From assembly GCA_963841435.1 (NCBI GenBank), contig CAWJCS010000006.1, positions 1,312,001 to 1,376,000 on the forward strand: DNA of 64,000 nt, given 5' to 3'. A program made the translations under genes and the position numbers. Below, one piece after another: positions 1 to 54,196 of this stretch (its first letter is position 1; the number at the start of each line of letters is the position of its first letter). Source of the stretch: an uncultured delta proteobacterium (GTDB lineage Bacteria; Myxococcota_A; Polyangia; Polyangiales; Polyangiaceae). The notes beneath the pieces were generated by a model. The model was not told where the DNA came from. It made no database searches and saw nothing but the letters and a program-made list of their open reading frames with translations.

Positions 1-1268
1 TCACCGTCTCCCGGCTCAGCCCGGTCCTGGTCGAGTTCAACGTCGAGATCGACAAACAGCGCGTGAGCGAGGAGGTCGAGAAGGCCTACTCGAACGTGGC
101 GCGCAACGCGAAGGTGAGAGGCTTCCGGCCCGGCAAGGCGCCACGCCGCGTGCTCTCGCACGTGTACGGGCCGCGCATCGCCAGTGACGTTGCCGAGCGC
201 CTCGTCGAGGAAACGTATCCGCAGGCGGTGACGGGTCAGAACCTGCAGCCCGTCGGCTCGCCGGCGATCGAGCGCAAGACGCTGCTCGAGGATCAGCCGT
301 TTTCCTACAAGGTGCGCGTCGAGGTGCTGCCGGCGATCGAGAGCGTGTCGTACGAGGGGCTCACGGCCAAGCGCACGAAGCCCGTCGTCACCGACGAGCA
401 AGTGAAGGCGGAGCTCGATCGTCTGCGCGAGGGGCATGCGACGCTCGAGGAGCCGAAGGAAGCGCGTGGCGCCGCGAGTGGCGACGTCGTGACGCTCGAT
501 TTCCAGGTCGAGGTGGACGGCGAAATCGTCGCCGACGCAGGCGCGACGGACTTTCGCGTGCAAGTCGGCCGCGGCCAGCTGCTCACCGTCATCGACGACG
601 CCCTCGTGGGCCTGAAGGTGGGCGAGCAGAAGACCGTCGAGGTCGACATGCCGGCCGGGCACCCGCACAAGAAGCTCCGCGGCAAGAAGGCGATGTTCCA
701 GGTGACGCTGAAGGCGCTGAAGGAGCGCGTGCTTCCGGCGGCCGACGACGAGTTCGCAAAAGATCTCGGCGAGTTCGAGACCCTCGCCGCCCTCGAGCAG
801 GGTTTGCGCGAGCGTCTCGAGAAGCAGGCGACCGAAGCGAGCGAGAACGCGCTTGCCGAGCAGCTCGTCGTCGAGCTCTGCAAGGCGAACCCGGTGGCCG
901 TGCCGCCATCGCTCGTCGAACGCCAGATGCGCATCACCGAGCAGGAGATCCTCGCGCGCGCCCGGGCGCAGGGTGGTCAGGCGTCAGGGCTCGGCGAAGA
1001 GCTCAAGCAGAAGGTGCGGGCCGACAGCGAGCTCAAGGTGCAGGCTGGCCTTTTGATGGCCGAGGTCGCCAAGAAGGAAGCTCTCAAGATTGGCGACGAA
1101 GAAATCGAAAAAGGGCTCGCCGAGCTCGCCGAGCAATCGGGGAAAAACCTCGCGAAGCTCCGGGTCGAGTACCGCGAGCCGCAGAAGCGCGAGATGCTGA
1201 TCGGGATGATTTTGGAAAATAAGGTGCTGGACATCATCCAGGCTAAGGCCAAGATCGAGGAAGACTGA
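1..1268 (+). CDS. tig: Trigger factor (5' end outside window)
   Basis: GFRPGKAP ribosome-binding signature and FKBP-like middle domain; frame is open to the window edge ([17 protein letters not shown]); lies upstream of clpP-clpX-lon. Confidence 0.95.
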
Positions 1269-1279
1269 GGTCACCCGCC

Positions 1280-1951
1280 ATGACGCGTCGCCCCGAAACC
1301 CGCACCCAAGCCTTGCACCTGCTCGAAAGCCGAGCGGGCGCCGACCGTATCCAGGACAACGTCATCTACCCGCACGTCGTCGAGACGACGCACCGCGGCG
1401 AGCGCACCTGGGACATTTTCAGCCGCCTCCTGAAGGACCGCATCGTGTTCCTCGGCAGCGGCGTGGACGACGATGTCGCCAACATCCTCATCGCCCAGTT
1501 CTTGTTCCTCGAGAGCGAGGACCCCGATAAGGACATCCAGCTTTACATCAACTCGCCGGGCGGCGTCGTCACGGCGGGCCTGGCCATCTACGACACCATG
1601 CAACACGTTCGGTGCCCCGTGAGCACGATCTGCATCGGTCAGGCCGCCAGCATGGCCGCCGTGCTGCTCGGCGCCGGGCTAAAGGGGCGCCGCTTCGCCC
1701 TCCCGAACGCCCGCATCATGATCCACCAGCCGCTCGGCGGCGCGCGGGGTCAGGCGACTGACATCGAGATCCAGGCCCGCGAGATCCGGCACATCAAGGA
1801 CGTGCTCACCGACATCCTCGTCCACTCCACGGGTAAGGCCAAGGCGGACGTGACCCGGGACATCGACCGCGACTTTTACATGGGCCCCGGTCAGGCGAAG
1901 GAATATGGTTTGATTGACGAGATCTTCGAGCCCAAGAAGAAGGGCGGTTGA
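1280..1951 (+). CDS. clpP: ATP-dependent Clp protease proteolytic subunit
   Basis: [27 protein letters not shown] (catalytic Ser), RIMIHQP (His). Confidence 0.98.
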
Positions 1952-2117
1952 GCAGCCCCCCGCGGGTTGTGGGGCCGGTCACCCGGCTGACCCCGGGTGG
2001 TAAGCCTGGATCCGCCCCGTTCGGGGTACCGGTCCCCTTACCCTTCCCGTATGCTGGACGTAAAACTGGGCAGACAAGCCGCTAACGTGCGGGCCAGGTT
2101 CGGAAAAACGTGAGGCC

Positions 2118-2133
2118 CGGCACGCCGGTGGCT
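2118..2133 (+). promoter_or_regulatory. Possible sigma-54 -24/-12 element upstream of clpX
   Basis: CGGCACGCCGGTGGCT fits GG-N10-GC with a GGCACG core, about 60 nt before clpX; the -12 part is imperfect. Confidence 0.3.
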
Positions 2134-2194
2134 TGCCCGGGACGGGCTGGAGCCATAGAATTTCCCGGGCAGCCCGCCCTGCCGCGAGGACGAA

Positions 2195-3448
2195 GTGGAG
2201 AGAAGGCGCGACGAAAATAACGGTAATCTTTGCTGCTCCTTCTGCGGGAAATCGCAGAAGGAAGTGAAGAAGCTCATCGCGGGCCCCACCGTCTACATTT
2301 GTGACGAGTGCATCGCGCTCTGCAACGACATCATCGCGGAGGAGGTCGAGAAGGACGAGCCCTCTGCGGGCGCCGACCCCACGCCGAAGCCCGCCGAGAT
2401 CAAGTCGATCCTCGACGACTACGTGGTCGGGCAGGACCGCGCCAAGAAGATCCTCGCGGTCGCCGTCCACAATCACTACAAGCGCATCAACTCGAAGATC
2501 GCAACGGACGACGTCGAGCTCGGCAAGAGCAACATCCTTTTGCTCGGCCCCACCGGTAGCGGCAAGACGCTACTTGCTCAGACGCTCGCGAAGATCCTCA
2601 AGGTCCCGTTTGCGATCGCCGACGCGACGACGCTCACCGAGGCCGGCTACGTCGGTGAGGACGTCGAGAACATCATCGTTCAGCTGCTGCAAAACGCCGA
2701 TCACGATGTCGAGCGGGCCCAGCGTGGCATCGTCTACATCGACGAAATCGACAAGATTTCCCGCAAGAGCGACAACCCCTCCATCACGCGCGACGTATCG
2801 GGGGAGGGCGTTCAGCAGGCGCTCCTGAAGATCATCGAGGGCACGATCGCCAACGTGCCGCCCAAGGGTGGGCGCAAGCACCCGCAGCAAGACTTCTTGC
2901 AGGTCGACACGAGCAACATCCTGTTCATCTGTGGCGGCGCCTTCGTCGGTCTCGATGGAATCATCCAGCGCCGCATCGGTCAGAGCCGGCTCGGCTTCGG
3001 TGCCGAGATCAAGGGCAAGGCCGAGCTTCGCCTCGGCGAGCTGCTCTCGCACGTGCAGCCGGAGGATCTGCTCAAGTTCGGCCTCATCCCCGAGTTCATC
3101 GGGCGCCTGCCCGTCATCGCCACGCTCCACGAGCTCAGCGAGGAAGCGCTCATCGACATCCTCACCAAGCCGAAGAACAGCTTGGTGAAGCAGTTTCACA
3201 AGCTCTTCGAGATGGATGGCGTGAAGCTCAAGTTCGCGAAGGGCGCCCTGCAGGCGATCGCTCGTAAGGCCCTGGCGCGCGAGAGCGGAGCGCGCGGTCT
3301 TCGCGCCATCATGGAAGAGGCCATGCTCGACGTCATGTACGACGTGCCGTCGAAGCAGGGCATCAAGGAGGTGGTCGTCAACGAAGAAGCCATCCTCCAG
3401 GGCGATCCGCCCCTCATCGTCTATCACAAGGAAGCCGGCGTCGGCTGA
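2195..3448 (+). CDS. clpX: Clp protease ATP-binding subunit ClpX
   Basis: CSFCGKSQ...ICDEC zinc finger, GPTGSGKT Walker A, YIDEIDK Walker B, RKH loop, LGF loop. Confidence 0.98.
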
Positions 3449-3485
3449 GCGGGCGGCAGGCGTCGCGGCCTCGGGCCGTGGCGAC

Positions 3486-6029
3486 GTGTCGCGCGCAGAG
3501 CCGCCCGAGAACGAGCCAAAGGCGAGCATGAGCGACATGTTCTTCCGCAACGATCCCAACGAAAAAGGTGCCGCGCCGCGGCGTACGCTGCCGGCGCTGC
3601 CGCTTCGCGACATCATCGTGTTCCCGCACATGGTGTCGCAGCTCTTCGTGGGGCGCGACAAGAGCATCGCCGCGCTCGACGAGGCGATGAGTCGCGACAA
3701 GGACATCTTCCTCGCCGCCCAGAAGAACGCAAAGACCAACGACCCGACGCCCGACGACATCTACGGCGTCGGCACCATCGGCACGATCGTCCAGCTTTTG
3801 CGCCTCGCCGACGGCACCGTGAAGGTGCTCGTCGAAGGGCGGCAGCGCGCGCGCGTGCGGCGCTACCTCGAGACGAACGACTATTTCCTCGCCGAGATCG
3901 AGGACCTTCCCGAGCGCACCGAGGCTGACGTCGAGGTCGAGGCGCTGATCCGCAGCGTGCAGAGCACCTTCGAGGTCTACGTCAAGCTCAACAAGAAGGT
4001 ACAGCCGGAAGTGCTGATGAGCGTCCAGAGTGTCGAGGACGGCTCGAAGCTCAGCGACACCATCGCCGCGAACCTACCGACCATCAAGCTCGCCGATCGC
4101 CAGGGCCTGCTCGAGATGGACGAGCCGAAGAAGAGACTAGAGCGCCTGTACGAGCTCATGCAGGCCGAGATCGAGATCCTGCAGGTAGAAAAGAAGATCC
4201 GCTCCCGCGTCAAGAAGCAGATGGAGAAGACGCAGAAGGAGTACTACCTGAACGAGCAGATGCAGGCGATCCAGAAGGAGCTCGGGGGCGGGGAGCGGGA
4301 CGAGTTCAAGAACGAGATTCAGGAGATCGAGGAGCAGCTCAAGCAGAAGCGGATGAGCGAGGAGGCGCAGGCCAAGGTGCGAAAGGAGCTGAAGAAGCTC
4401 AAGCTCATGCACCCGACCTCCGCCGAGGCAACCGTCGTCCGCAACTACATCGACTGGATCCTGGCTCTGCCGTGGATGGAGAAGACGGAGGAGCGCTTCG
4501 ATGTCGTCGAGGCCGAGCGCATCCTCGACGAGGACCACTACGGGCTGAAAAAGTGCAAGGAGCGCATCGTCGAGTACCTCGCGGTTCAGGCGCTCACCAA
4601 GCAGCTGCGTGGGCCGATTTTGTGCCTCGTGGGGCCGCCCGGCGTCGGCAAGACGAGCATCGCGAAGAGCATCGCGCGCGCCACGGGCCGCAAATTCGTG
4701 CGCCTCGCGCTCGGCGGCGTGCGTGACGAGGCGGAGATCCGCGGCCACCGGCGCACCTACATCGGCGCGCTACCCGGCAAGATCGTGCAGAGCCTCAAGA
4801 AGGTGGCGACGAACAACCCCGTGTTCTTGCTCGACGAGATCGACAAGATGAGCACGGACTTCCGCGGCGACCCCGCCGCCGCGTTGCTCGAGGTGCTCGA
4901 CCCGGAGCAGAACGCGACCTTCAACGATCACTATCTCGACCTCGACTACGATCTTTCGAGCGTGATGTTCATCACGACGGCGAACACGCTCGGCGGCATC
5001 CCGGTCCCCCTGCAGGACCGGCTCGAGATCATCCAGCTCTCCTCGTACACGGAGTTCGAGAAGCTCAACATCGCACAGCGCTACCTCGTGCCCCGGCAGC
5101 GCACCGAGTGCGGCCTCGGCGAGGCCGACCTCACCTTCACGGAAAGCGCGATCCGCACGATCATTCACCACTACACGCGCGAGGCCGGCGTCCGCTCGCT
5201 CGAGCGCGAAATTGCCAGCGTTTGTCGCAAGGCCGCGCTCAAGGTCGTCAAGGAAGGCAAGGGCCACTCGCTCGACGTGAAGGCCGCCGACGTGCCGAGC
5301 TACCTCGGCGTCCCGCGCCAGCGCATCGGCAAGAAGGACGAGGCCGATCAGGTGGGCCTCACCCACGGCCTCAGCGTGTCGGAGCACGGCGGCGACATTC
5401 TCGATTGCGAGGTGAGCGTCGTTCCCGGCAAGGGCAAGCTCGTCATCACGGGCCTGCTCGAGAAGGGCATGGAGGAGAGCGCCCAGGCCGCGATGAGCTA
5501 CATCCGCTCGCGCGGCGGCGCGCTCCAGCTCGAGCCCGACTTCTATCAGAAGATCGACGTGCACGTGCACTTCCCGGACTTCGTCCGCAAGGACGGGCCG
5601 AGCGCCGGCGTCACCATGGCGACGAGCATCGCGAGCGCGCTCACGCGTCTGCCCGTGCGCAGCGACGTCGCGATGACCGGAGAGATCACGCTGCGCGGGC
5701 GCGTGATGCCCATCGGCGGGCTCAAGGAAAAGCTCTTGGCTGCGCACCGCAACCGCATCACCACCGTGCTGATCCCTCTCGAAAACCGTAAAGATTTGAA
5801 GGAGATCCCGCGGCGCGTGCTCCGGGCCCTGCGCATCGTCCTCGTCTCGCACATGGATGACGTGCTGCGCGAGGCCGTGCGCTTGCCGGACCCGGATCGG
5901 TTGTTCGGCCAGCGCAAGCCCCTCATCGAGTACCGCTTCGGTGAGCTCTTCGAGGGCGATCCTGAGGGTGAGGGTCCCGCGATGCCTCCGGAAGAGCCAC
6001 CTCCGGCGCAGCCGGGCCTGTCGTCTTGA
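3486..6029 (+). CDS. lon: Lon protease (start may be ATG 3528)
   Basis: [11 protein letters not shown]-domain, [23 protein letters not shown] (Ser) and IGGLKEK (Lys) dyad. Confidence 0.98.
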
Positions 6030-6068
6030 CCTCGGGCCGGGCGCGCAGCGTCCGGCAGCCACGCCCTG

Positions 6069-6448
6069 GTGTGGGCGAGCGCGTTCTCGGTCGTGCTCGC
6101 CGCGATGGCGTCGTGCGACGGCGGACCGCGCGGCGACGACGATGACGACGCGCCCGGCGGCGAGACGAGCACGGGTGGTGCGGTCCGTGGATGCCCTGTG
6201 CGAATCCGCGCGCGCCGCAGTCGCCCGGAGTGAGCGGCACCCTCAACACCACGAATGCCGTCTGCTTCTTCATAGACGAGACCATCAACGGCTGGGGCTG
6301 CTCGAGCTTTGGGGCTCGCACGGTGTCCGCCAACGGAACGCGCATGACATGCGGTCAGGTCCCGATGCCCGCCAAGGTGGACGGGGGCTACTACTTCGAA
6401 GTCAGCGAAGGAGAGCCGAGCTACGCGTCTTTCTACTGGTGGCAATAG
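6069..6448 (+). CDS. Frameshifted putative lipoprotein with C-terminal CBM64-like carbohydrate-binding domain; start uncertain
   Basis: One frame gives VWASAFSVVLAAMASC plus an acidic linker; after a shift near 6180 ORF 6191-6448 gives an aromatic-rich module (INGWGCSSF...PAKVDGGYYF...YASFYWW). Confidence 0.5.
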
Positions 6449-6555
6449 CCGCGACGACGGCTGCGGCGCGCCCGCGACGTGCCCCATCTCACGACCATGA
6501 GGACGTCGCGCGGGCAGGCGATGGTATCGCCGTCGCTCACGGGAAGGCCCGCGCG

Positions 6556-6906
6556 TCACCCGAACGTATCGCCGTCATATCCCCAGAGGTGGCCCTGGGC
6601 GTCGGCAAACTCGATGTAGATGCGCCCGCCCGGCACACCGAGCGCCTTCGACAAGCGCGTGCAGATTTCCCCCGAAAGCTTCTTGGCGAGCTCGGGCGAG
6701 AAGCGCCCGACGTTCTTTACCTCGACGTAGGCAGACGGCTCGCTGCTCCCGGCGAACGTCATCGCGGCAACGGGCTCGAACGCCGTCATGACGTACGACT
6801 CCGGCTTCCGGAGCTCTTTCGCGAGCAGCTTCGACAGGTCGGCGAGCAACGAGCCGCGGGCCTCGTCCTTCGGGCTGACGGATGACGTGATCTTCACGAG
6901 GGGCAT
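6556..6906 (-). CDS. MIF-family (phenylpyruvate) tautomerase
   Basis: N-terminal MP (catalytic Pro1), KPESYVM, MTFAGSSEP, RIYIEF, WGYDGDTF. Confidence 0.92.
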   Translation of the reverse strand: MPLVKITSSVSPKDEARGSLLADLSKLLAKELRKPESYVMTAFEPVAAMTFAGSSEPSAYVEVKNVGRFSPELAKKLSGEICTRLSKALGVPGGRIYIEFADAQGHLWGYDGDTFG

Positions 6907-7023
6907 GAGGCTGTTCTCTCCGCGCCGCGCGAATGCGGCGCCTTCGGTGCCCCGAGGCTAACCAATCCGCGCCTCAGCGGTCACGCCGCGGGCGCCAGGG
7001 CCGCAGGGAGGTGGTCGGTCGAG

Positions 7024-8868
7024 CTAGCTTCCCGTTTCGCGGCGAACGAGGACCGCGGGGTCGCGCGGATCCGGACGCCGTGTCGCCCGCTCGAAGGACG
7101 CGGCGACTCCCGTGGCCACGTCAACCAACGAGAAGCTCGGCGCGAGCTGGATCGCCCCGATATCGGTGCCTCGGATATTGCCGCGCCGGCAGAGCATCGG
7201 CAGGAGGCGGCGCGCATCGGCGCCCTGGGCTTCGCCCCAGGAGACGCGAAAGCGGACCCAGCCGTCGCTGGTGTCGCGTGCTGGCTCGCGGCCTTCAGTT
7301 GTGTGGGACCCGGCGGTCGGTCGAGCACCGCGTAGCCGCTCATGAGCGCGGTCGTTGCGGGGCTGGGGGATCGGGCGAGCGCTGCGTGCCGCGTCGCGCG
7401 GATGAGCGCTGCGTGCCGCGTCGCGCGGATGAGCGTTGCGTGCCGCGCTGCGCGGATGGGCGTTGCGCTCGATCCAGGGCTTTGCCCCCTTTTTCCCGGC
7501 TGGGGGCGGCTCGAAGCGGGTGATCTCGCGCGGCTCGGTGACCGTCGTGCGCTGCGTTCGCTCGATGAGCTGCGCGAGCGCCCGTTCCGCCCGGCCGGCG
7601 GCAACGAGCTCCTTTGCCAGACGGAGCGCTCGCGTCTCCACCGCGCGCTCGCTGTCTGCGAGCACGCCGTCGGCACTCGGTTCCCCGCCGAGCTCGGCGA
7701 GCAACCGGTCGTCCTCGGCTCGGGCGATCTGCTCGGCTGAGGGGATCGGCTCGAAGCGGTGCTGCACGCCCGCCCGCTTGAGGAGCGCTGACAGCCGGGG
7801 CATCCCGGCCGGCTGCACCATGATGGAGCTCTTGCCCTTCTGGCCGGCGCGGCCCGTGCGCCCACTCCTGTGCGTGTACGTGTCGGCGTCGTTCGGCGGC
7901 TCGAGCTGAACGACGCGCGCGATGGCCCGATGGTCGATGCCGCGCGCCGCGACGTCGGTGGCGACGAGAACTTGCATTTTGCCCTGCTTGAAGGCGGAAA
8001 GCGCGCGGTGGCGCGCGTCTTGATCCATCTCGCCCGAGAGCGCCCCGACGGCAAAACCAGCAGCATCGAGCTCGTCGCACACGCGCGCTACGTCGGCCCG
8101 CGTGCGGGCGAAGGCGAGCACCTGCTCGGTCGGCGCCGCGAGCAGCAGGTTCACGAGCGCGCTGACGCGCTCGTTGGGCTTCACGAGGTGGACGACGTGG
8201 TCGATGTCGGAGTTGGCGGAGCCGAGCGGCGTCCCCTGAACGTACGCGGGGTTTTCTTGTACGCGCTGCGCGAGCGCCTCGACGTCGCGTGGGAACGTTG
8301 CGGAGACGAGGTGCGTCCGATGACCTGCCGGAGAAAGCGCGAGAATCGCTTCGAGGTCTTCGCGAAAGCCGAGGTCGAGCATGCGATCGGCTTCGTCGAG
8401 CACGATGGCCCCCGCGCGCCCGAGGTCGATGGCACCCCGGCGCAGATGATCGAGCAGCCGGCCCGGCGTTCCGACCACGATGCCGGGCCCGCGCGAAAGA
8501 ACGCGATACTCGTCCCGGACGCTCGAGCCTCCCGTCACCGACGCGACGAGCACGCGGCTATTCGCATAGAGCCAGGCAAGCTCGCCCTCGACCTGCTTGG
8601 CAAGCTCACGCGTTGGAGCCACGACCAAGGCGAGGGGGCGCGCGATGCCGTCCTTCGGCTTTGGCACCGCCTCGACGGCGTGGCGAACGGCGAACCCGAT
8701 CGCGAGGGTCTTGCCCGAGCCGGTCTGCGAGCTGATGCGAAGGTCACGCCCGGCGAGCGCCGGATCGAGCACTGCCTCCTGCACGGTCGTGAGGGTCGCG
8801 TACCCTCTGTCGGCGAGGGCGCGTGATAGCTCGGGACCGAGAACCTCGAAGGGGTCGAAAGGCAACAT
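7024..8868 (-). CDS. DEAD-box RNA helicase with C-terminal DbpA-type RNA-binding domain (DeaD/CsdA-like)
   Basis: QTGSGKT, PTRELA, TPGR, DEAD, SAT, ARGID, HRSGRTGRAG; C-terminal LCRRGNIRGTDIGAI. Confidence 0.93.
   Translation of the reverse strand: MLPFDPFEVLGPELSRALADRGYATLTTVQEAVLDPALAGRDLRISSQTGSGKTLAIGFAVRHAVEAVPKPKDGIARPLALVVAPTRELAKQVEGELAWLYANSRVLVASVTGGSSVRDEYRVLSRGPGIVVGTPGRLLDHLRRGAIDLGRAGAIVLDEADRMLDLGFREDLEAILALSPAGHRTHLVSATFPRDVEALAQRVQENPAYVQGTPLGSANSDIDHVVHLVKPNERVSALVNLLLAAPTEQVLAFARTRADVARVCDELDAAGFAVGALSGEMDQDARHRALSAFKQGKMQVLVATDVAARGIDHRAIARVVQLEPPNDADTYTHRSGRTGRAGQKGKSSIMVQPAGMPRLSALLKRAGVQHRFEPIPSAEQIARAEDDRLLAELGGEPSADGVLADSERAVETRALRLAKELVAAGRAERALAQLIERTQRTTVTEPREITRFEPPPAGKKGAKPWIERNAHPRSAARNAHPRDAARSAHPRDAARSARPIPQPRNDRAHERLRGARPTAGSHTTEGREPARDTSDGWVRFRVSWGEAQGADARRLLPMLCRRGNIRGTDIGAIQLAPSFSLVDVATGVAASFERATRRPDPRDPAVLVRRETGS
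7377..7467. repeat. 27-bp tandem repeat, about 3.4 copies, inside the helicase gene
   Basis: GAGCGCTGCGTGCCGCGTCGCGCGGAT units at 7377, 7404, 7431 and a partial at 7458; encode R(N/S)AHPR(S/D)AA. Confidence 0.9.
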
Positions 8869-8942
8869 GGGGGCCGGCCCCTATATCATCTGCTGCGAGA
8901 ATCGCCCGTCGGGGGCGCGAAGCGCGCAGAAACGGCCCGAGG

Positions 8943-9200
8943 CTAGTGACCGCAGGGCTTCTCGCTCGCCGCGTCGCCGATGACCCGGGCGAGCGCATCC
9001 CTCATGGATGCATCGTCGTCGAAGACCTGCAGGTCGTCGTCCATCACGTCGCTCACCCGGCCCATGAGCTCGTCCAGAGCATCTTCGTCGTCCGGATCGA
9101 CCTCCCCCAAATCCCAAGTCGCCCCGCAGGTCTCGCACTGCCCGAGCGCCTCTAGCCTCACGGCAAGGGTGGTCGCTGCTTCCGTCTGAACGTCCGCCAT
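8943..9200 (-). CDS. Small acidic hypothetical protein with CxxC
   Basis: MADVQTE...CETC...KPCGH with GC3-rich codons; start re-picked at ATG 9200. Confidence 0.6.
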   Translation of the reverse strand: MADVQTEAATTLAVRLEALGQCETCGATWDLGEVDPDDEDALDELMGRVSDVMDDDLQVFDDDASMRDALARVIGDAASEKPCGH

Positions 9201-9502
9201 GCGGGTGCGACTCCCCCGGGTGCGCGGCGCTGTCAAATGGAGCCCGGTCGGGAGCCGAGAAAGGCGGACGAACGTGCCTGTCTGACCCGCGGGTCCACCG
9301 CCGCGACCGGTGTCTTTCGAGAAATCGATCGACGCGGTGGCAAGCTCCGCCGGTTGCTCGAGAAACGAAACCTGCGCGAAGGTCGGAGAGCGCGCCATGT
9401 CTACATGCGCGATTGGCGCGAGCTCATGTCGGGATCTCGCCCCGAAATGCTGCTGCCGCCGCGCCGCGTTGTAAGCGCCCGGCGGCGAGGTATGCTTTGG
9501 GA

Positions 9503-11554
9503 ATGGTGGAAGATGGGAGATGGGCGGCAGGTTCGAGCCGTTGGGCGTGGATTTCGCTGGTCCTCGTCGCCACGGGCTGCGTGGACCCGCTGGATGTCGT
9601 CGGGGTGGAGGAGACCGTCACGCAGACACAGAAGAACGACCCGCTCGCCGACGACCGGCTCGACGACAAGCACCCCGCTTACGACGCGTTGAGAACGGTC
9701 GAGGAAGATTTCGAGGGCTGCGGGGTCACGTTGAACAAGAGCGCGAGCGTCACGCGCCTCACGCTGCAATCGAACGGCGCCAGCGATAACGCGCTGCGAG
9801 GCAAGATCTTTCCGAATCGCGACGCCGCGCGCGCCGCGCTCGGGGGCGCCCCCACGCTTCCGACCATCGAAGTCGTCAACGGTGCGCTGAAGCCGTTCAA
9901 CGACGGTCTCTATGCTGCCGTGGAGCTCGCCGCCGAACGCGGTGACGCCGCGACCGTCAACAAGCAGGCCCTCTTCACCGCCTTGCTGACGGAGCTCCTC
10001 GCGCGCTCGCAAAATGGGAGCCAGGCCGAGAAGCCGCAGGCGCTCGCCGCAGCGAAGCACGTTGCGACGGCGCTCACACTCTCGGGAGACCTCGCGAGCG
10101 CTCCGGCGGATGTCGCTGCCGACGCCGACGAAGCCGCGACACGCTTCCGCGCGGCTGGCATCTTTGCCAAACCCATCGGGTTTTACACGTGGACCCCCGA
10201 GCTCGAAACCATCTTCACGCGCGATCGCTGGCTCCAGAGCCGTTACATCCCCGGTGCCACGGTCACTGACCCGCCGTTTGGCGGCCTCGCCGAGCTCGGG
10301 CTCGTCGTCGGAACGCCAGGGGCGCTTTCCGACGCGTACCGCAAGACGCTCGAGCTCTACGCTGGGCTCACCGATCCCTTCTTCGACAGAACGCCCTTCG
10401 ATCTCTCGCCGTTCGTGCCCGACGCGGCGGCGCTCGCGGATCTATCGAACGTGGAGCAACGCTTCGCCGACACCTTGCCGGTCGACTACCCGGGGTATCC
10501 CTTCTGCAATCCCGGTGTTGCCGCCATGCCTGCCTCGGAGAGCGCGGAAAATCGCATGATGCGAAGGCTCCTGTGTGGCGAAATGTTGATCGACGGTGAG
10601 ACCCTCATCGACGGCCTCATCCGCACCATCCAGAGCGGCGAGCTCGATCTCACGCCGCGTGAGGACTCCGGCTTTTACGACCAACAGCTCTTCGTGCTCG
10701 AAACACTGCTCGTTCCCGACAAGGCAAGCGAGTCGCAGCACCTCTTGCTCACCCGGGCGTACAAGGAAAAGCTGGTCGAGACGTTCAAGTCGCTCCTCAT
10801 CCAGTCCCGCGAGACGCACGCGAAGCAGGTGGCGATCGTCAACGCGGTCTCTTTGTCGTACCAGCCGCCACCCACCGAGTTCACGATTTACCCGAAGCTC
10901 GTCGTCGAGCCGTTCCCGACGTTTTACCTGCGCACGGCGCGTGCGTACCGCTTTCTCCAGGGCGTGCTCGACGCTGCGCTCGGGACGGACTTTGCGAAGA
11001 CGACGGCACGGCTCATCGAGGACGGCACCCGCAGCGACCTCTCGATCGGCGAGGAGCTGGCCGAAAAGGAGCAGCTGCTCTACGGGCTCCACGCGCTCGC
11101 GGCCGACTCGATCGGCATGGCGCCCGAGCTCGGTGCCGACGAGCTCGCCGATTTCCCGCTGGATGCCGCGCGCACGGCCGCGAACGCCTGGCTCGTGCAC
11201 GTGGCGAGCGATTCCGACGTTGGACGCGACCCGCGCGTGAGCCTGCCGGTCGCGCTCGAGACGGATGCCGAAACCAACGTTGACTACGCGATTTACTGGA
11301 TCGTAGCCGGGGTGAAGATCATCCACCTCCACGCAAGTTTCTCGGATGCGCGGCGGCCGGAGGTCGTAAAAGTGCCGCCCAACTGTATTCACAAGGGCTG
11401 GTCTGCGTTCGAGCCGTACATGTTGGTGGAGCAAACGATCCAAGCGCGCCGCCGCGCTGACCTGCCGCCGCTCACGCGCGGAGAGCTGCGCGCCCTGTGC
11501 GACGAGCACGACGACGCCGAGTCCATCAAGGCGGCCTTCGAGACGGCCCCGTGA
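9503..11554 (+). CDS. Large lipoprotein, DUF3160-like
   Basis: Lipobox LVATGC; KPIGFYTW...IFTRDRWLQ, RETHAKQ and VEPFPTFY resemble DUF3160 motifs. Confidence 0.55.
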   Translation: MVEDGRWAAGSSRWAWISLVLVATGCVDPLDVVGVEETVTQTQKNDPLADDRLDDKHPAYDALRTVEEDFEGCGVTLNKSASVTRLTLQSNGASDNALRGKIFPNRDAARAALGGAPTLPTIEVVNGALKPFNDGLYAAVELAAERGDAATVNKQALFTALLTELLARSQNGSQAEKPQALAAAKHVATALTLSGDLASAPADVAADADEAATRFRAAGIFAKPIGFYTWTPELETIFTRDRWLQSRYIPGATVTDPPFGGLAELGLVVGTPGALSDAYRKTLELYAGLTDPFFDRTPFDLSPFVPDAAALADLSNVEQRFADTLPVDYPGYPFCNPGVAAMPASESAENRMMRRLLCGEMLIDGETLIDGLIRTIQSGELDLTPREDSGFYDQQLFVLETLLVPDKASESQHLLLTRAYKEKLVETFKSLLIQSRETHAKQVAIVNAVSLSYQPPPTEFTIYPKLVVEPFPTFYLRTARAYRFLQGVLDAALGTDFAKTTARLIEDGTRSDLSIGEELAEKEQLLYGLHALAADSIGMAPELGADELADFPLDAARTAANAWLVHVASDSDVGRDPRVSLPVALETDAETNVDYAIYWIVAGVKIIHLHASFSDARRPEVVKVPPNCIHKGWSAFEPYMLVEQTIQARRRADLPPLTRGELRALCDEHDDAESIKAAFETAP

Positions 11555-47758: not shown

Positions 47759-47971
47759 CGAGACGAACGGTGCTATGTTCCGCGCGATCGTACTCGCCGC
47801 CTTCGTCCGCCCCGTACGGGCACTGCCAATCTGGGCGTAGCGCACGAGGTTGCCGATCATCGTTCATCGACGTTCGTGCTGACACAACAGTCCCCAAGGG
47901 ACCGCTGGCGGCTCGAGCGCACGTATGTGCGATCCCCTCAACGGCCGACTTGGCCAGCACTCGGAGTCTCG

Positions 47972-49000
47972 ATGGACCTGCTCACCGCACTCGACCCTCG
48001 CACAGAATACTCATCTTCCCAGCTGCAGCTCATCGTCGGAGCCTGGGTGCTCGCGACGCCCTTCGAACGGAAGGCGAAGGTCTCGATCGTCAACGGTGAC
48101 ATCGAAGAAGCCGACTACGACAAGCGCTCCGTCTACTCGTTTCTCTACTCGCTCTATCGCACGATGGGCACCACCCAGACCGTGGGGGGCGAGCCCTACG
48201 AATTTACCTTCAACACCTGGGGGTACACGTGGCCGGCAGCGTGGGGGATCAGGCCGACGACGGAAACGGATCCCGAGCGCTTCGGGAAAAACGCCTACAC
48301 GGGGCTCTTCCACTTCGATGCCGTGACGAAATACCTCGCGGAGCGCGAAGGGCGCGTGCACGTCGTCGAGATGGGTTGCGGCACGGGCGCTGGTGCTCAC
48401 CACGTCGTCAGAAACACGCTGCCCCACTGCACCTACGAGGCTTTCGACATGCAGGAGGCCGCCATCCGGACGTGTCGGCGCAAATTCATCCCGGCCACCG
48501 AGGGCCGCCTCAAGGCCACCCGTGCCGACTGCACCGAGCTGCCCGTCGAGGAAGGCGTCGCCGACCTCGTCGTGGTTTGCGAGACCCACGTGACGGAGAT
48601 GGCAGGGCAGGTCACCGACGAGGACCGAAAGTTCTTCCACACCGCTCACCGCCTTCTCAAGACGGGGGGCATGCTCGTCTGGGGCAACGCGATCCCGGAC
48701 GACACCTGGCAGCCCTGCCTCGATTTTCTGAAGTCGCTCGGGATGTCGGTCGTCAACGTGTGCAACGTCACGGACGAGGCCATTGCGGCGCGCGTGGAAG
48801 ACAAGGGGCGCGCCGACGCGTACGTCAACGGCGTCCTCCAGCGCATGTGGGGCTTCAAGATCCCGCGGTTCGGCACGAAGAAGCGCATCGAGGCGCGGCA
48901 GGCGATGCTGAACTTCTACCGCAACCCCGGGACGCGGCTCTTCGACCGGATGGTCGAGCGGGTGGACACCTACAAGGTCGTCTGCCTGAAAAAGACCTAG
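47972..49000 (+). CDS. Class I SAM-dependent methyltransferase (Rv2952/Mtf2-like O-methyltransferase)
   Basis: FTFNTWGY, VVEMGCGTGAGA, ADCTELP...DLVVVCETH, RLLKTGG. Confidence 0.75.
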   Translation: MDLLTALDPRTEYSSSQLQLIVGAWVLATPFERKAKVSIVNGDIEEADYDKRSVYSFLYSLYRTMGTTQTVGGEPYEFTFNTWGYTWPAAWGIRPTTETDPERFGKNAYTGLFHFDAVTKYLAEREGRVHVVEMGCGTGAGAHHVVRNTLPHCTYEAFDMQEAAIRTCRRKFIPATEGRLKATRADCTELPVEEGVADLVVVCETHVTEMAGQVTDEDRKFFHTAHRLLKTGGMLVWGNAIPDDTWQPCLDFLKSLGMSVVNVCNVTDEAIAARVEDKGRADAYVNGVLQRMWGFKIPRFGTKKRIEARQAMLNFYRNPGTRLFDRMVERVDTYKVVCLKKT

Positions 49001-49073
49001 CCGTCCCCGGCTCCCAGGCGTGCACGACTCGGCGCTGCCCGAGTCGTGCGCGACTGATCATCGCTCGGGTGGG

Positions 49074-50001
49074 TCAGGACGAGGGCTTCTGTGCCGGCAG
49101 CGGAAGGTCGGCGAGGGCGGCCGCGCGCGAGCGGAACGTCCAGAAGACGAAGGCGCCTGCGAACGCCAGGAACAGCGCGCAGAGTGCCGGCAGGTTGAAG
49201 ATCTCGCTGCCGCCAATCAGCCGGATGAGCGGGTAGGCGACGACCATCAGGCACGCGCCGCCGAAGCCGATTCGCAGATCGTCGGGGGACAGGAGTGGAC
49301 CGGCGGCGGCCGCGGGTGCAGCGGTCAGCGGCTTTGCCATCCAGTGCTCGATGGGCTTCACGTGAAGCGCGAGCAGGAAGCCAATCGACATGAGACACCA
49401 GATGGCCGGCATCTCGTCCTTGTTCGAACGTCATGAAGAACGCCGGCAGAGGCCCCACGAGGAGATGATAGACGGTCCAGCGCCAGGAACCGTAGAACAG
49501 CGGCAGAAAGAAGGCCGGGATGAAATAGCAGAGGAAGCTACTATCGACCGCGTTGAGATAGAGCCTCCAGGCAATGTGCCAATCACCGTGGAAGCTACAG
49601 GTGTTCGTTCCGCAGAGCGGGACGACGCTCGGATCGCAGAGCCATTCCGCGTTCGGCACGTAGAGCTTCGACAGCATCGCCGTCGCGCCCAGCCCGCAGA
49701 CCAGAAATACCCACGGGCGGATGCGGCGCGCTTTCGTTGCGGGGATGAACGACAGGGCCAGAAGGTTGATGAAGAAGGGCTGAAACGCGATGTGCGCGTA
49801 GCTAATCCGCGTGAGCCAGCGGTTCGAGGGCAGGCCGCACTGATCGATGACGAGATAGGTGGCCGCCTGCAGAAGCTCCATCGCCGTGAAGTACAGGACC
49901 GTGCCCCAGCGTCCCGTCGGGCTCCCTTTCGAACGCGCCCATAGGGCTCCGGACACGCCCAGGGTGGCGACGGCCAAGCTTGCTTCACCCGACCAGCACA
50001 T
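49074..50001 (-). CDS. DUF5765-like membrane protein, frameshifted near 49428
   Basis: MCWSGEAS, MELLQA.TY.VIDQC, HIAFQPFF, WHIAW; removing one base gives MTSNKDEMPAIWCL and joins ORF 49074-49412. Confidence 0.75.
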
Positions 50002-50336: not shown

Positions 50337-50849
50337 TCAGCGCGCCGCGACTTGGAGGGTGGCGCGCTCGTTGAGCGTTTCCCTGATGGTGCGGGCCGCG
50401 TGGGCGAGCGCCGTGGCCTCCGGAGCGGTGCCAGCGCGCTTGCGGACCTCGCCGGCAAGCCAGGTCGCGCCCTCCTCGATGGAGCTGAACACGCCCATCG
50501 GATACGATGGGCGCGCGGCGAGCTGCAGGAGCGACAGGACCGCGCGCATTGCCGCCCCGCGGAACCCGGTGCCCTCGACCACCTGCGCGGCGGCTACCAT
50601 CGACGAGCCCGCGAGGCCCTGCCGGATGTACTTTCGCGCCTCGTCGGACGGAGGGCTGCAATCGCTCGAAACGATGAGCAGCGCCCCGGTGCGCTGGCCG
50701 CTCGCTTTGGAGAGATTCTCCAGCTCCGAGACGATGTGCTGCATCACCTCGTGCGTCGGAGCCTCCCGCGAGACGATGATTTCGACGTTTTCGAACCAGG
50801 CGATGGTGTGAGCGCCGTCGTTGAAGCGGTCGATTGCCTTCGTTCCCAT
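50337..50849 (-). CDS. STAS/SEC14-like small protein
   Basis: PPSDEAR...AQVVEGTGFRGAAMRAVL...VFSSIEEGATWL. Confidence 0.65.
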   Translation of the reverse strand: MGTKAIDRFNDGAHTIAWFENVEIIVSREAPTHEVMQHIVSELENLSKASGQRTGALLIVSSDCSPPSDEARKYIRQGLAGSSMVAAAQVVEGTGFRGAAMRAVLSLLQLAARPSYPMGVFSSIEEGATWLAGEVRKRAGTAPEATALAHAARTIRETLNERATLQVAAR

Positions 50850-51036
50850 GCGCGGTAGATGCACGCGCCCCGAATTGATTCGTTGTGCTGTTGCCACGAT
50901 ACCCCAGACCCACCTTAGGACCAGGAGCCGGCACACGGGAAGCAGAACCAGATCTCGATCCCAAGATTGGTAGGGTAGAAGACCACATCGTGCGCACGGG
51001 TGAGCGCGGGTGTCCGACCACGCTCACCCGTGCTCG

Positions 51037-52635
51037 TTAGCCGATGTCGCGGGTACGCTCTTCTGCGGCGATCGGCGAAAAACCAGAGAAACGCGGCGGG
51101 GGCAGCGTCCGCGACGCGCGGACGAACGTCTGTCCTTGGGCTTCGCGCAGCGACAGCGAGTACTGCTCTTCCGCGTTGTCGAACACCGTGTCGATGATCG
51201 CCGCGATCTCGCGATGCTGAGCAATCGTCGGCGACTCGGCGAGGAAGGCGGCGTCGGCGCCCGGATCGAGCGCGAGCTCGGCTGGGTGGGCGAGGTGGTG
51301 CCGGTTCGCCCAGTAGTCGAGGGTGACGCCGTCTTCGGCTTCGACCGCGGCCGCGAGTGGCTCGGTGCACGCGAACAGGGGTTCCCCAGTCGCTTCGAGC
51401 GACTTCATCAGCCACCAGCGAACCAGGGGGTGCTCGTTTCTGAACGCGAAGTGTTTCACCTTCGCCATGTTTCGGCGGTGTGTCTCGGTCTGGGGCGTCA
51501 AGAAGTAGAAGCCGATGGCCTCTCCCGCGTCCCAGCCGAGCAGGCGATCCATCCCGAGTGCCTGCCAGTCGCGGAGGTAGAGAGCCCCGTGGCTCGCCAG
51601 GCGATCCGCCCAACGGGTGATGGCCTCTTCGAGGGGTGAGCTTGGCGCCGGGTAGCGCAGCACCAGCTCGTTGAAGTCTCGGTAGCCGGCGATGTCGATG
51701 CCCCAGATGGCCATGAAGCCCCGCAGCCGGTCGCGCGGGGACACCGCTCCGTCCTCGCGCAGCCACGCGAGCAACGGATGGCGCTCGAGCTGAGCCACGC
51801 GGCGACGCAGCCTGCTCACCAACAGGGACTGCGTCGCGGTAGGGGGCGGAGCCGTGGGGGGCGTGGGCGGAGCGCTGCGGTCGCGCAACGGCGCCGTCGC
51901 GTCGAGAAACTCGCCTTCGAGATCCCGGACGAGCGCGTCATAGCTCTGCGCTCGCCTGCCGTATTCGTGGACGTCGTCGAGCACGCGGAGGAACCGGTCG
52001 AAGACGCGCTGGACGACGAGCGTGGCGGCGCTCACTTGCTCGTCGTTCAGGATGGACGCCGCGAGCTCGGTCTCGTCGGTATGAAGATGTCCGGTCTCGC
52101 GATCGCGATGGTATTGCCCGAAGTAGTCGTGCGGTACGCCACGCTCGCGCGATAGCCGCGTCGCGATCGGCGCGGTGTGCCCGAAGAATACGTCACCGCA
52201 GATCTCGACCGCCTCCATCATAGGGAAGCGCACGAGCGGATCCGGGTGCTTGACCGACATCTCGAGTAGCTCCATGCCGAAGCGGCGCACCGTTTCGGTG
52301 CCGTCGGCGTGGAACATCCACCACAGCATCTTGCCTGGCGTCCACGACCCGATTTCGCCGAGCGCGAGGGTCGTCCAGTTCTCGTAAAAGAGCAGCGAGT
52401 GCGTGCGGTCCTCCTCGGTGTGCTCGTTGATTGCGCGCTCCAGGGAATTCTGGGGCGCTTCGTAGCTCAAGAACCACTTGTTCAGGTCGGCGAAACCCAT
52501 GATGAAGTCGATCATCACGGGTGCAAACACGAAGCGCCGCTCCAACGGAACGGCATCCGAGTTCAGCCAGCCGAAAAACGGGTGCGCTGCAACGCGCGCC
52601 CTTCCACCACGTAGCTGTTGCCAAATACGTTTCAT
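51037..52635 (-). CDS. Tandem heme-oxygenase-like diiron oxidase (AetD-like), two domains
   Basis: Domain 1: HPFF, FADLN, INEHTEEDRTH, MEAVEICG, YHRDRETGH. Domain 2 repeats the pattern after a Pro/Thr linker. Confidence 0.75.
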   Translation of the reverse strand: MKRIWQQLRGGRARVAAHPFFGWLNSDAVPLERRFVFAPVMIDFIMGFADLNKWFLSYEAPQNSLERAINEHTEEDRTHSLLFYENWTTLALGEIGSWTPGKMLWWMFHADGTETVRRFGMELLEMSVKHPDPLVRFPMMEAVEICGDVFFGHTAPIATRLSRERGVPHDYFGQYHRDRETGHLHTDETELAASILNDEQVSAATLVVQRVFDRFLRVLDDVHEYGRRAQSYDALVRDLEGEFLDATAPLRDRSAPPTPPTAPPPTATQSLLVSRLRRRVAQLERHPLLAWLREDGAVSPRDRLRGFMAIWGIDIAGYRDFNELVLRYPAPSSPLEEAITRWADRLASHGALYLRDWQALGMDRLLGWDAGEAIGFYFLTPQTETHRRNMAKVKHFAFRNEHPLVRWWLMKSLEATGEPLFACTEPLAAAVEAEDGVTLDYWANRHHLAHPAELALDPGADAAFLAESPTIAQHREIAAIIDTVFDNAEEQYSLSLREAQGQTFVRASRTLPPPRFSGFSPIAAEERTRDIG

Positions 52636-52978
52636 TGGTCCCACGCCCTTTTCTGGTTTTTGTGCCCGCCCGCCCGTCTCGCGTGTCCCCGCGTACGGGC
52701 CGAGTGTCTGGACACTAGCCGAAGGCGGGTGTTCGAGGAAATGAATTTTCATCACCCTTCAGTGTCGTGGTCGTCGCGCGTGCTTGTCTCACAATGAGTC
52801 ACGCGCCGAACGTCATCTGCACGAAACCCCACGGCCACGACGCTTTGCGCCAACGAGATCGCGTCGCGCTTGCGCAACCAGTGAAGCGCCGCGACTGCTT
52901 GCCCAACCTGCGCAGTGCAGGGGCGCAGTCGAAGGGTGCGGTTGCGTTAACCCGTCTTTGGCGGGTCGGAAGTCCCGC

Positions 52979-54196
52979 CTACTGATCCATCATCTTCTGT
53001 TGGATCTGCCAGTCGGGATCCGTGCAGAGCGTGCACGCGGGGCCGTAGAACCACGAGCGTAGTGCGGTGTCACCCATGAGGTGGACACGCATCCAGGCGG
53101 TGACCGCTACTTCCACGGGGCCCGGCGTGGTGCCACGGAACGTGATCCAGTTCGCGTGGTCGGCGGTCAGGTAGGTCGCGAGCATGACCGGCTGGTTCGA
53201 GATGCCATTGAATGCCGACATCACCGTGCTGCAAGGGACGGTCGTATCCATGCCGCCGCAGAACAGGAACGCCGGGCCGTGCAGGTTGCGCTGATTGCTG
53301 GCGCCGCAGAGGGGCGCGATCGAGAGAACGTGGCTGTCACCGCCCGCCGTGGTGGTGGCGAAGCCACCCTGCGAATGGCCGGTCGCGCCGACGTGCATCG
53401 TATCGATGTGTTGGTAGAGCGGGCTCGCCGGGTCGTCGTTCTGCTCGAGCACCCACGTCACACCCGCGACCATGGGGGGAGGATCTCCCTGGGCCACGTT
53501 GGGGCTGTCGGATGCGATGACGACGAAGCCGTGCGACGCGAGATGGTTGAGGAGCACCTTGTACAGGCTCGGATTCGAGCCTGTGCCGTTGCCCCACGTC
53601 ACGACGGGATGGCAGCGCCCGCCGTCGCCGAGCTCCATCGGGCGGAACATGGTGAAGGCGACGGGCGCACCGCCGTCCGCTCCTTGTCCAGCTTGGGGGC
53701 CCACGTTCGTTTCCGTGACCGTGGCGAACGGGCCCGCTGCCGCCGGGTCTGCCGCGGGCCAGCCGCCCACCGTGCACGAGCCGCCGCTTGCGCCTGCGGC
53801 TCCGGCGGAGCCACCGGACGCGACACTGCCGGACGCGCCGCCGCTCGATTCACTCGCTCCGGCGCCAGCGCTGCCGCTAGCCCCCGCGCCGGAGCCACCG
53901 CTCGAGGAACCGGACGCACCCGTTCCCGCGCTTCCGGACGATGCGCCCGCCGCTCCCGCGGAACCGCCCGTCTCCGTCGTGCCACCGGAGCCAGCCCCGA
54001 CGCCGCCGCTGCCGGCGACGCTTCCCCCCGTGCTTCCCGACATACCGGCCGTGACCCCCGCGGAGCCTGCCGAGCCGCCCGACCCTCCCGAACCGCCAGC
54101 TCCGGCAACCTTGTCTCCGGAGGTCCCGCAGGCCCCGATGCTCATGCTGAGGACAGCGGCGGCAACGATGGTGACTCGCACGGCTTGGGTTCTCAT
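52979..54196 (-). CDS. Lipoprotein alpha/beta hydrolase, P. mendocina cutinase/lipase-like
   Basis: Lipobox IGAC, Gly/Ser linker, HPVVTWGNGTG, LASHGFVV, GHSQGG, GGMD, ADH, FYGPACTLC. Confidence 0.85.
   Translation of the reverse strand: MRTQAVRVTIVAAAVLSMSIGACGTSGDKVAGAGGSGGSGGSAGSAGVTAGMSGSTGGSVAGSGGVGAGSGGTTETGGSAGAAGASSGSAGTGASGSSSGGSGAGASGSAGAGASESSGGASGSVASGGSAGAAGASGGSCTVGGWPAADPAAAGPFATVTETNVGPQAGQGADGGAPVAFTMFRPMELGDGGRCHPVVTWGNGTGSNPSLYKVLLNHLASHGFVVIASDSPNVAQGDPPPMVAGVTWVLEQNDDPASPLYQHIDTMHVGATGHSQGGFATTTAGGDSHVLSIAPLCGASNQRNLHGPAFLFCGGMDTTVPCSTVMSAFNGISNQPVMLATYLTADHANWITFRGTTPGPVEVAVTAWMRVHLMGDTALRSWFYGPACTLCTDPDWQIQQKMMDQ

Follow-up and report, generated by a model that had tools for sequence, protein, structure and literature searches.

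We describe a gene in a 64,000-nucleotide stretch of DNA from an uncultured delta proteobacterium (contig CAWJCS010000006.1, positions 1,312,001 to 1,376,000; hereafter the window) that encodes one 532-residue protein built from two homologous domains, both related to the nitrile synthase AetD of aetokthonotoxin biosynthesis. The gene (P0001 in our protein set), taken from its open reading frame (ORF) and translation, lies on the minus strand at 51037..52635, stop codon included. On balance we favor the reading that the protein is a fused pseudo-homodimer. Domain 1 (residues 1-246, 51898..52635, minus strand) would be a diiron oxidase, and domain 2 (residues 267-512, 51100..51837, minus strand) would provide a half-site for a single metal at the Fe1 position, or for a ligand, while serving as the dimer partner. 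Domain 1 was assigned from phmmer, VIA-align, and ligand counts, and the diverged AetD-type domain 2 from phmmer, a profile, a model, residue counts, and substitution ratios.

The two halves are clearly related to each other. Profile-profile alignment with hhalign, using the halves of a 55-sequence alignment, matched domain 1 to domain 2 with a probability of 100% and an E value of 9.5e-50 over 228 columns at 27% identity, which places the internal repeat far above chance and bears out the two-homologous-domain architecture proposed in a preliminary description of the gene. The same alignment gives the register between the domains, residue n of domain 1 corresponding to residue n+270 for n from 30 to ∼183. 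When the whole protein was compared by phmmer with all PDB sequences, AetD chains (8ji2, 8zvg, and 8twn) matched query residues 1-229 with an E value of 2.4e-11; they were the sole sequences below E 0.05, and the next match was at E 0.053. The AetD strings HTQEDAKH, IEAMETAG, and SHVEVETGH, which the preliminary description had set beside those of the protein, are visible in this alignment. The second half alone matched AetD at E 0.002 by phmmer, and a profile built from 22 domain-2 sequences matched it along 217 of 239 positions with an E value of 5.4e-16. Significant similarity to the AetD/SktA subfamily extends over the whole of each domain, identity to AetD being 22-24% in domain 1 and 16-17% in domain 2.

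A full-length AlphaFold2 model, built with the 55-sequence alignment, has a predicted local distance difference test score (pLDDT) of 92.2 and a predicted template modeling score (pTM) of 0.91, and domain 2 modeled separately has a pLDDT of 91.9. Both domain models contain the seven-helix heme-oxygenase-like bundle. VIA-align superposed domain 1 on AetD with Z 23.4 and a root-mean-square deviation of 1.7 Å over 226-228 residues, the next family being HrmI at Z 12.9; for domain 2 the values were Z 26.4 and 2.1-2.5 Å over 225-234 residues, with BesC next at Z 14.8. Other heme-oxygenase-like dimetal oxidases (HDOs) and heme oxygenases fall at Z 11-15, and Foldseek also puts AetD entries at the top, with E values from 3.8e-6. 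In these predicted models each half matches AetD best and no other HDO family exceeds Z 14.8, in line with the kinship first proposed. Taken with the sequence matches, the models indicate that both domains are AetD-type HDO domains.

Domain 1 has the ligands expected of a diiron site. In AetD, Fe1 is bound by H79, H172, and E176 together with the substrate amine and carboxylate, and Fe2 by D76, E140, E176, and H179; Y167 hydrogen bonds to the substrate carboxylate, and the indole is clamped between F44 and I146 (PMC10654658). Asp76, His79, Glu144, His176, Glu180, and His183 of domain 1 align, in that order, to AetD D76, H79, E140, H172, E176, and H179, and the set of three His and three carboxylates (or 3H/4C) is present on three core helices. 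Residue counts were made on near-complete domains of tandem proteins (n = 122 for domain 1 and n = 126 for domain 2). By this measure, D76, H79, and H176 are each kept in 119 of 122 sequences, E144 in 120, E180 in 118, and H183 in 98. The substrate contacts are also kept, with Y171 (the equivalent of AetD Y167) in 121/122 and F44 in 115/122; Phe48 is invariant in the 55 aligned sequences. The carboxylate-binding Tyr on core α-3 and the stacking aromatics of the AetD/SktA subfamily are thus found in domain 1, their roles being those assigned in AetD (PMC10654658, PMC11611611). The pocket is lined by Phe44, Phe48, Val143 (Ile in the family consensus), Cys146, Phe150, and Phe215, a composition that suggests an unhalogenated aromatic or hydrophobic side chain on the substrate. 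We note that position 183, the sixth ligand (AetD H179), is Ala, Ser, Thr, or another residue in 24 of 122 tandem proteins and is substituted in just 2 of 56 single-domain relatives; in some tandem members the domain 1 site may have five ligands.

The second domain has diverged at the metal site. In the window protein it keeps His349, Glu414, Tyr441, His446, and His450, and the equivalent of Asp76 is Leu346. Across the 126 sequences, H349 is present in 114, H446 in 113, and Y441 in 120, and position 414 is Glu in 100 and Gln in 17. At position 450, equivalent to the bridging Glu, 58 sequences have His, 31 have Glu, and 5 have Asp. Position 346 is Leu in 117, with no acid among the residues listed, and position 453, equivalent to AetD His179, is variable, with Glu in 7. 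Domain 2 therefore lacks the set of three His and three carboxylates, the survivors of which are His349, Glu414, and His446. With the Fe2 ligands gone, a diiron cluster could not be built there. AetD H79 and H172, the equivalents of the retained His349 and His446, are ligands of Fe1 exclusively, and in iron-free AetD the substrate's amino-acid part hydrogen bonds to Y167, H79, and H172 (PMC11611611). The retained half-site is significant because Tyr441, His349, and His446 are the counterparts of the residues with which AetD grips its substrate by the amino-acid end. The alignments indicate that domain 2 has conserved one half of the AetD site, that of Fe1, rather than acquired a new six-ligand arrangement. 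Domain 2 also has near-invariant residues of its own, namely, D314 at the Phe44 position (118/126), D356 (125), R387 (124), R406 (123), W408 (125), and R445 (117), and Trp342 is a further conserved residue of this kind.

The motifs from which the preliminary description had argued were all located, with HTEEDRTH at residues 72-79, MEAVEICG at 140-147, and YHRDRETGH at 175-183 in domain 1 and DRLASH at 344-349, KSLEATG at 411-417, and RHHLAHPAE at 445-453 in domain 2. It had taken domain 1 for a ligand-complete AetD-like heme-oxygenase-like domain, which agrees with the alignment of all six ligands and their general conservation. Its view of domain 2 as a homologous domain with an altered metal site likewise stands, and the retention of the first His and the Glu with loss of the Asp proves to be a trait of the family. 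The further proposal that the motif HxxxExxH had been rewired to HxxxHxxE fails as a description of the family: His446 is widely kept, but position 450 is His in fewer than half of the sequences, and the final Glu, Glu453, occurs in only 7 of them.

AetD is a homodimer in solution (PMC10654658, PMC11611611), and its interface is formed by auxiliary helix α-2 and auxiliary helix α-3, the latter a "dimerisation domain" around T95/M96 (PMC11611611). The two domains of the tandem protein are predicted to pack against each other through a pseudo-twofold interface resembling that of this homodimer. With a pTM of 0.91 for the 532-residue chain, the prediction of how the domains sit relative to each other is a confident one. 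A complex prediction of residues 1-246 with residues 267-512 scored 0.91, and the best of three controls scored 0.00; among 80 solved complexes, 58 passed the mark used for this score, as did 2 among 110 mismatched pairs, counts that hold only approximately with a custom alignment. The runs share at least 98% of contacts, and the pLDDT of the partner is at least 88. By hand count, 34 of the 37 interface residues in domain 1 have their n+270 equivalent among the 38 in domain 2, and the stretch that corresponds to the dimerisation segment of AetD, residues 95-105 and 366-379, is part of the predicted interface. The best consensus agreement between the domains falls at residues 90-104 and 360-374, where LxLDxxLGW is shared and 7 of 15 positions agree.

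The tandem arrangement is widespread. We assembled 244 relatives (99 from a word index and 145 from an exhaustive representative search) and classified them with hidden Markov models of the two halves: 139 have domain 1 and domain 2, 84 have domain 1 only, 20 have domain 2 only and are mostly fragments, and one has two domain-1 matches. There are hence at least 139 tandem relatives, in Myxococcota and Actinomycetota, none with a given name. Among the 99 word-index homologues, 95 are 486-640 residues long with at least 89% query coverage and 37-62% identity, and their few labels read "hypothetical protein" from metagenome-assembled genomes (MAGs) of Myxococcaceae or Polyangiaceae. The exhaustive search returned 397 proteins at E up to 1e-3, 55 of them at E up to 1e-30; single-domain relatives of 225-260 residues match domain 1 alone. 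A genome scan added 21 loci, in Polyangiaceae MAGs, five Sorangium chromosomes, Pseudonocardia and other actinobacteria, and an Oligoflexus MAG, and both domains lie in one frame at all 21. The tandem gene was not found in 24 other genomes of the same genus, 5 of which have single-domain relatives, and 16 other genomes of the same order gave no match; several of these same-genus and same-order genomes are 63-88% complete.

Both halves appear to be maintained. Nei-Gojobori ratios of nonsynonymous to synonymous substitution (dN/dS) in 11 pairs of related loci, which are kin and not independent, range from 0.15 to 0.40 for domain 1 and from 0.15 to 0.55 for domain 2. The ratio is lower for domain 2 than for domain 1 in five Sorangium pairs and higher in six actinobacterial pairs. 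These substitution patterns indicate that both domains are under purifying selection. A FastTree phylogeny was built from 34 tandem proteins split by domain, 56 single-domain relatives, and 3 stand-alone domain-2 proteins; the 34 were drawn from 115 with both domains near-complete, as representatives at 50% identity plus 12 word-index picks. A single branch with support of 1.0 sets the 37 domain-2 sequences, without exception, apart, a bipartition that fits one ancient duplication and fusion. The duplication of a homodimer gene followed by fusion, with one site becoming degenerate, is a familiar evolutionary pattern.

Some relatives depart from the tandem form. The three stand-alone domain-2 proteins (P0123, P0141, and P0143, all metagenomic) are 236-270 residues long and apparently complete, and they keep Leu346, His349, Glu414, and Tyr441. 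Some domain-1-only proteins, such as P0149, cluster with domain 1 of the tandem proteins. Judged by sequence, the stand-alone domain-2 proteins and the tandem-like domain-1 proteins may be split, two-gene versions of the system; no relative was found for the P0143 locus in the metagenome contigs or genome contigs scanned. Truncation or a frameshift in a tandem seems to account for two further proteins, P0125 and P0131.

These observations suggested to us the following course of events. An ancestral single-domain homodimeric enzyme would have been duplicated and fused once. Domain 1 would have remained a substrate-triggered diiron oxidase that binds two Fe(II), in keeping with the substrate-triggered HDOs, which activate O2 with the substrate at Fe1 (review, PMC13108848). 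An α-amino acid, whose side chain is probably aromatic or hydrophobic, would chelate Fe1 of domain 1 through its amine and carboxylate, Tyr171 would hold the carboxylate, and the Fe1/Fe2 pair would activate O2. Domain 2 would have retained the fold and an interface of the twofold type, together with the half-site for Fe1 and the amino acid (His349, His446, Tyr441, Glu414, and His or Glu at position 450). It most likely would bind a single metal ion or a ligand at this half-site, as FlcD binds iron at Fe1, and would double as the obligatory dimer partner of domain 1. For iron binding, the amino-acid substrate, and any activity of domain 2, we infer from sequence and from analogy with characterized enzymes.

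Several observations weigh against the fused pseudo-homodimer as we have drawn it. The complex score may reflect the memory of the model for the solved AetD homodimer, and the likeness of the interface to the AetD dimer rests on residue lists, not on superposed coordinates. In domain 2, position 450 is neither His, Glu, nor Asp in 32 of 126 sequences and position 414 is Gln in 17, so that a three-ligand mononuclear site is not universal. Asp314, which replaces the indole-stacking Phe44, and the conserved Arg445 might fill the domain 2 pocket in place of a ligand, and the buried His and Tyr residues could be retained purely for structure. The tandem gene is present in only 1 of 25 same-genus genomes, that of the window itself, and the window offers no biosynthetic context, with neither a P450 nor a halogenase.

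Domain 2 might instead be a purely structural pseudo-enzyme, half of an obligate dimer that takes up no metal or ligand and only stabilizes domain 1. In favor of this, the Fe2 ligands are lost (Leu346 in 117/126 sequences, position 453 variable), the interface segment at residues 90-104 is the part most alike between the domains (7 of 15 consensus positions), the predicted pseudo-symmetric packing fits the role of a partner, and the pocket might be closed by Asp314 and Arg445. Pseudo-enzymes, however, usually shed such active-site residues, and here His349, His446, and Tyr441 are 90-95% kept across proteins that are 25-62% identical, close to the 97-99% for the ligands of domain 1. We regard a domain 2 of structure alone as possible, though on the unlikely side. 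The opposite view, in which both domains are catalytic and a diiron domain 1 and a mononuclear domain 2 of the FlcD/HamA type carry out successive oxidations of one amino-acid-derived substrate, draws on the cluster of His349, His446, His450, and Glu414, with His447 and Glu453, around the former site in the window protein. Mononuclear HDOs do exist, in FlcD (PMC11363339) and in HamA, described with a "2His-1Glu" site, and the P450 and methyltransferase genes beside the tandem gene in many relatives suggest a multistep pathway. Position 450 is nonligating in 32 of 126 sequences, however, the pocket has changed from aromatic to charged (Phe44 to Asp314), and no gene for a reductant or cosubstrate is near the tandem gene in the window; we find two catalytic domains quite unlikely.

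The last alternative, that domain 2 is a decaying duplicate or that the tandem is a recent chance fusion or an assembly artefact, could appeal to the lower identity of domain 2 to AetD (16-17% against 22-24%) and to the lack of pathway context in the window. It is refuted by the recurrence of the tandem in 139 of 244 relatives and in one frame at 21 of 21 loci, by conservation of residues such as Asp356, Arg387, and Trp408, and by dN/dS below 1 in 11 of 11 pairs, and we consider it hardly credible. The preliminary description had allowed for simple decay if the residues of domain 2 proved unconserved; its key residues are 90-99% conserved. Beyond the fused pseudo-homodimer that we favor, one may speculate on a two-site class of HDO, in which diiron and mononuclear sites flank an internalized interface and either perform successive oxidations or let domain 2 gate the reaction by binding substrate or product. 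In most relatives such an enzyme would work with a translationally coupled P450 and a methyltransferase in an undescribed small-molecule pathway common to Sorangium and actinobacteria of the Pseudonocardia type. We think this rather unlikely.

The surroundings of the tandem gene are conserved in many relatives. An orthologous cytochrome P450 gene lies directly upstream at 17 of the 21 loci (L003-L006, L008-L017, and L019-L021). Across phyla its product is 54-88% identical to the copy at L006, and it ends 4-6 nucleotides before the tandem gene where coordinates were read; at L006 the P450 occupies 4698-5951 and the tandem gene 5956-7440. A related S-adenosylmethionine methyltransferase gene adjoins the tandem gene at 8 of 21 loci, and a second P450 is found at the five Sorangium loci. 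The P450, tandem, and methyltransferase genes look like a conserved cassette common to Actinomycetota and Sorangium, as at L019, where it runs over 4665-5963, 6001-7530, 7610-8488, and 8365-9882. Among its cultured carriers are Pseudonocardia hydrocarbonoxydans NBRC 14498 and Sorangium cellulosum So ce26. As a generic, CYP107-like P450 of class I (best PDB match EryF, E 1.3e-46), the linked enzyme gives no information on the substrate. The upstream P450 is lacking at the window and at L001, L002, L007, and L018. A search of the window genome (7.78 Mb in 6 contigs, 95% complete) at E up to 1e-10 revealed no orthologue of it. The genome has three P450-family matches, all of them distant: one shares the contig but lies ∼1 Mb off, and the other two are on different contigs. 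The window genes scanned include no halogenase, and the single Trp_halogenase-family match of the genome lies ∼1.35 Mb away, as expected from the preliminary description, which had claimed that no halogenase was near. Clustering with a tryptophan halogenase, seen in the AetD/SktA subfamily, is therefore absent here.

Housekeeping genes, among them tig-clpP-clpX-lon at 3-6029 and those for cytochrome bd oxidase and MgtE, give the window itself the look of core chromosome. As candidate pathway partners, 15 neighbors of the tandem gene were compared by tblastn with the 21 loci, among them genes for a pseudouridine synthase, a rhodanese, a methyltransferase, DUF5765, a PETase-like lipoprotein, a carbohydrate-binding module, DUF6016, an alcohol dehydrogenase, and MgtE; only a 199-residue downstream gene recurs. 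The window methyltransferase (47876-49000) was rejected as a cassette member, having no match to the methyltransferase linked elsewhere. The 199-residue gene (50337..50936, minus strand, read from a GTG, with the frame open to 51023) lies ∼100 nucleotides downstream of the tandem gene on the same strand. It is kept immediately downstream at L001 with 64% identity, and at L002 a relative with 31% identity stands one gene further from the tandem gene, so that it is a possible operon partner in the window subclade only. A family search gave DUF7793 at a subthreshold E value of 0.013 and nothing else, and BLAST showed no similarity to the DUF7793 gene near the tandem gene in L006. Its Atlas leads, at 0.83-0.90, have no common family; SpoIIAA-like and DUF7793 leads are at 0.83-0.85.

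Three other genes drew our attention. The upstream neighbor at 52979-54196 (minus strand) encodes 405 residues, with a signal- or lipoprotein-like N terminus, a long Gly/Ser/Ala-rich linker, and a PETase-like or chlorophyllase-like α/β-hydrolase (PF12740, E 2.3e-12; GHSQGG motif), and it is not kept beside the tandem gene elsewhere. The ORF at 48997-50001 (minus strand) opens with a membrane domain matching DUF5765 at E 6.6e-33 (residues 32-114 in the translation of 49431-50001), after which comes an Arg-rich, junk-like tail; in another frame, 49074-49430 has a gene-like GC content at third codon positions of 0.86, and the region could be a frameshift or two overlapping calls. On another contig of the same genome (L023 88-2145, plus strand; G000:C5 around 26-28 kb), a 685-residue ORF matches the tryptophan dimethylallyltransferase family Trp_DMAT at E 1.3e-12 and, in its C-terminal part, the heme-oxygenase-like family Haem_oxygenas_2 at E 8.8e-6, just below the cutoff; the gene that follows encodes an FAD-binding oxidase. 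This second, unrelated HDO-type fusion may, from its family matches, act on tryptophan or indole.

The gene model of the tandem protein is well supported. The ATG at 52635 gives 532 residues, and the same frame is open upstream to a GTG at 52755; M1 is kept in at least 90% of the 55 aligned sequences, and this start of the homologues supports the ATG. The GC contents at the three codon positions, 0.68/0.47/0.82, are typical of real genes in the window, whose GC content is 66-72%. Between the domains lies a Pro/Ala/Thr-rich linker (residues 247-266, 51838..51897, minus strand), placed by motif position and consensus fraction, in which the sequence APPTPPTAPPPT named in the preliminary description was found at residues 255-266. 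The linker is present in the relatives examined and is poorly kept in sequence, with a mean consensus fraction of 0.29, as compared with 0.62 and 0.56 for domains 1 and 2, respectively. The C-terminal tail (residues 513-532, 51040..51099, minus strand) is probably disordered, with pLDDT below 50 over residues 517-532 and a mean consensus fraction of 0.23 over residues 500-532.

HDOs are a fast-growing superfamily of unusual chemistry that includes enzymes of nitrile, alkyne, N-nitroso, and azetidine formation. The tandem proteins belong to no Pfam or NCBIfam family and are labeled only as hypothetical proteins. No Pfam family, Haem_oxygenas_2 (PF14518) included, matches the window protein at E up to 10, and NCBIfam gives a chance-level match alone, at E 0.1. 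Searches of the openly accessible full-text literature turned up no account of these proteins, of HDO domains in tandem, fused, or duplicated form, or of AetD in connection with Sorangium. The paper on SktA, a skatole synthase, mentions AetD-related homologues of unknown function and a sequence space that is mostly cyanobacterial; the passages of its main text that were covered contain no mention of two-domain forms. A fused, asymmetric HDO pseudo-dimer is thus apparently a widespread and undescribed arrangement. We expect it to interest HDO enzymologists, as a natural system for studying the role of the second subunit in the HDO dimer, as a naturally occurring halfway form, in a single chain, between HDOs with dinuclear and with mononuclear sites, and as a marker for an unexplored pathway of P450, tandem HDO, and methyltransferase in cultured Sorangium and Pseudonocardia; the window copy itself has no pathway context.

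Among known systems, AetD (PDB 8JI2-8JI7, 8TWN, 8TWT, and 8TWW) is the closest. It has the fold common to both domains here, and domain 1 repeats its six ligands, the H-H-E order at Fe1, the Tyr (Tyr171 for Y167), and the stacking aromatics (Phe44 and Phe48); the predicted interface between domains 1 and 2 uses the segments of the AetD homodimer. SktA, an AetD homologue, has F214 at the position of Phe215 here, in the register of the phmmer alignment, where AetD has Ser214 in contact with the 7-Br (PMC13108848). The differences are equally plain. AetD and SktA are built from single-domain, homodimeric subunits of ∼240 residues, whereas the protein described here has two domains in a 532-residue chain, the dimer apparently having been internalized, and its second domain is without Fe2 ligands. 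In the window the gene has no tryptophan halogenase, tryptophanase, or P450 gene near it, and in place of a cyanobacterial host there is a high-GC genome, with the closest homologues in Polyangiaceae and Myxococcaceae MAGs.

For domain 2, the instructive comparison is with FlcD of fluopsin C biosynthesis (PDB 9B9M and 8W1Q), in which E181, H191, and H274 bind mononuclear iron at the Fe1 site and an Arg occludes Fe2 (PMC11363339). Like FlcD, domain 2 would be an Fe1-only HDO with two His and one carboxylate and an unusable Fe2 position, and where FlcD has R281 at the former Fe2 site, domain 2 has Arg445 beside His446. The two are not close kin, domain 2 scoring Z 14.2 against FlcD and 26.4 against AetD. 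The E-H-X-H-V-R motif (PMC11363339) and the N-terminal domain of FlcD are absent from domain 2, which is instead fused to a diiron paralogue. We take the resemblance as a functional analogy only, pointing to a possible mode of working and not to family membership. The diiron HDOs UndA, BesC, HrmI, PolF, the central domain of SznF, and CADD, which act on amino acids or fatty acids, have the same superfamily fold, the same logic of three His and three carboxylates, and the substrate on Fe1, but stand at Z 11-15 from the domains here; UndA, BesC, HrmI, PolF, SznF, and CADD are homodimers in crystals (PMC11363339, PMC13108848), and the papers searched describe none of them as having two HDO domains in tandem. 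The characterized HDOs covered by these accounts are homodimers with identical metal sites, whereas the tandem family would be a fused dimer in which the two sites have diverged.

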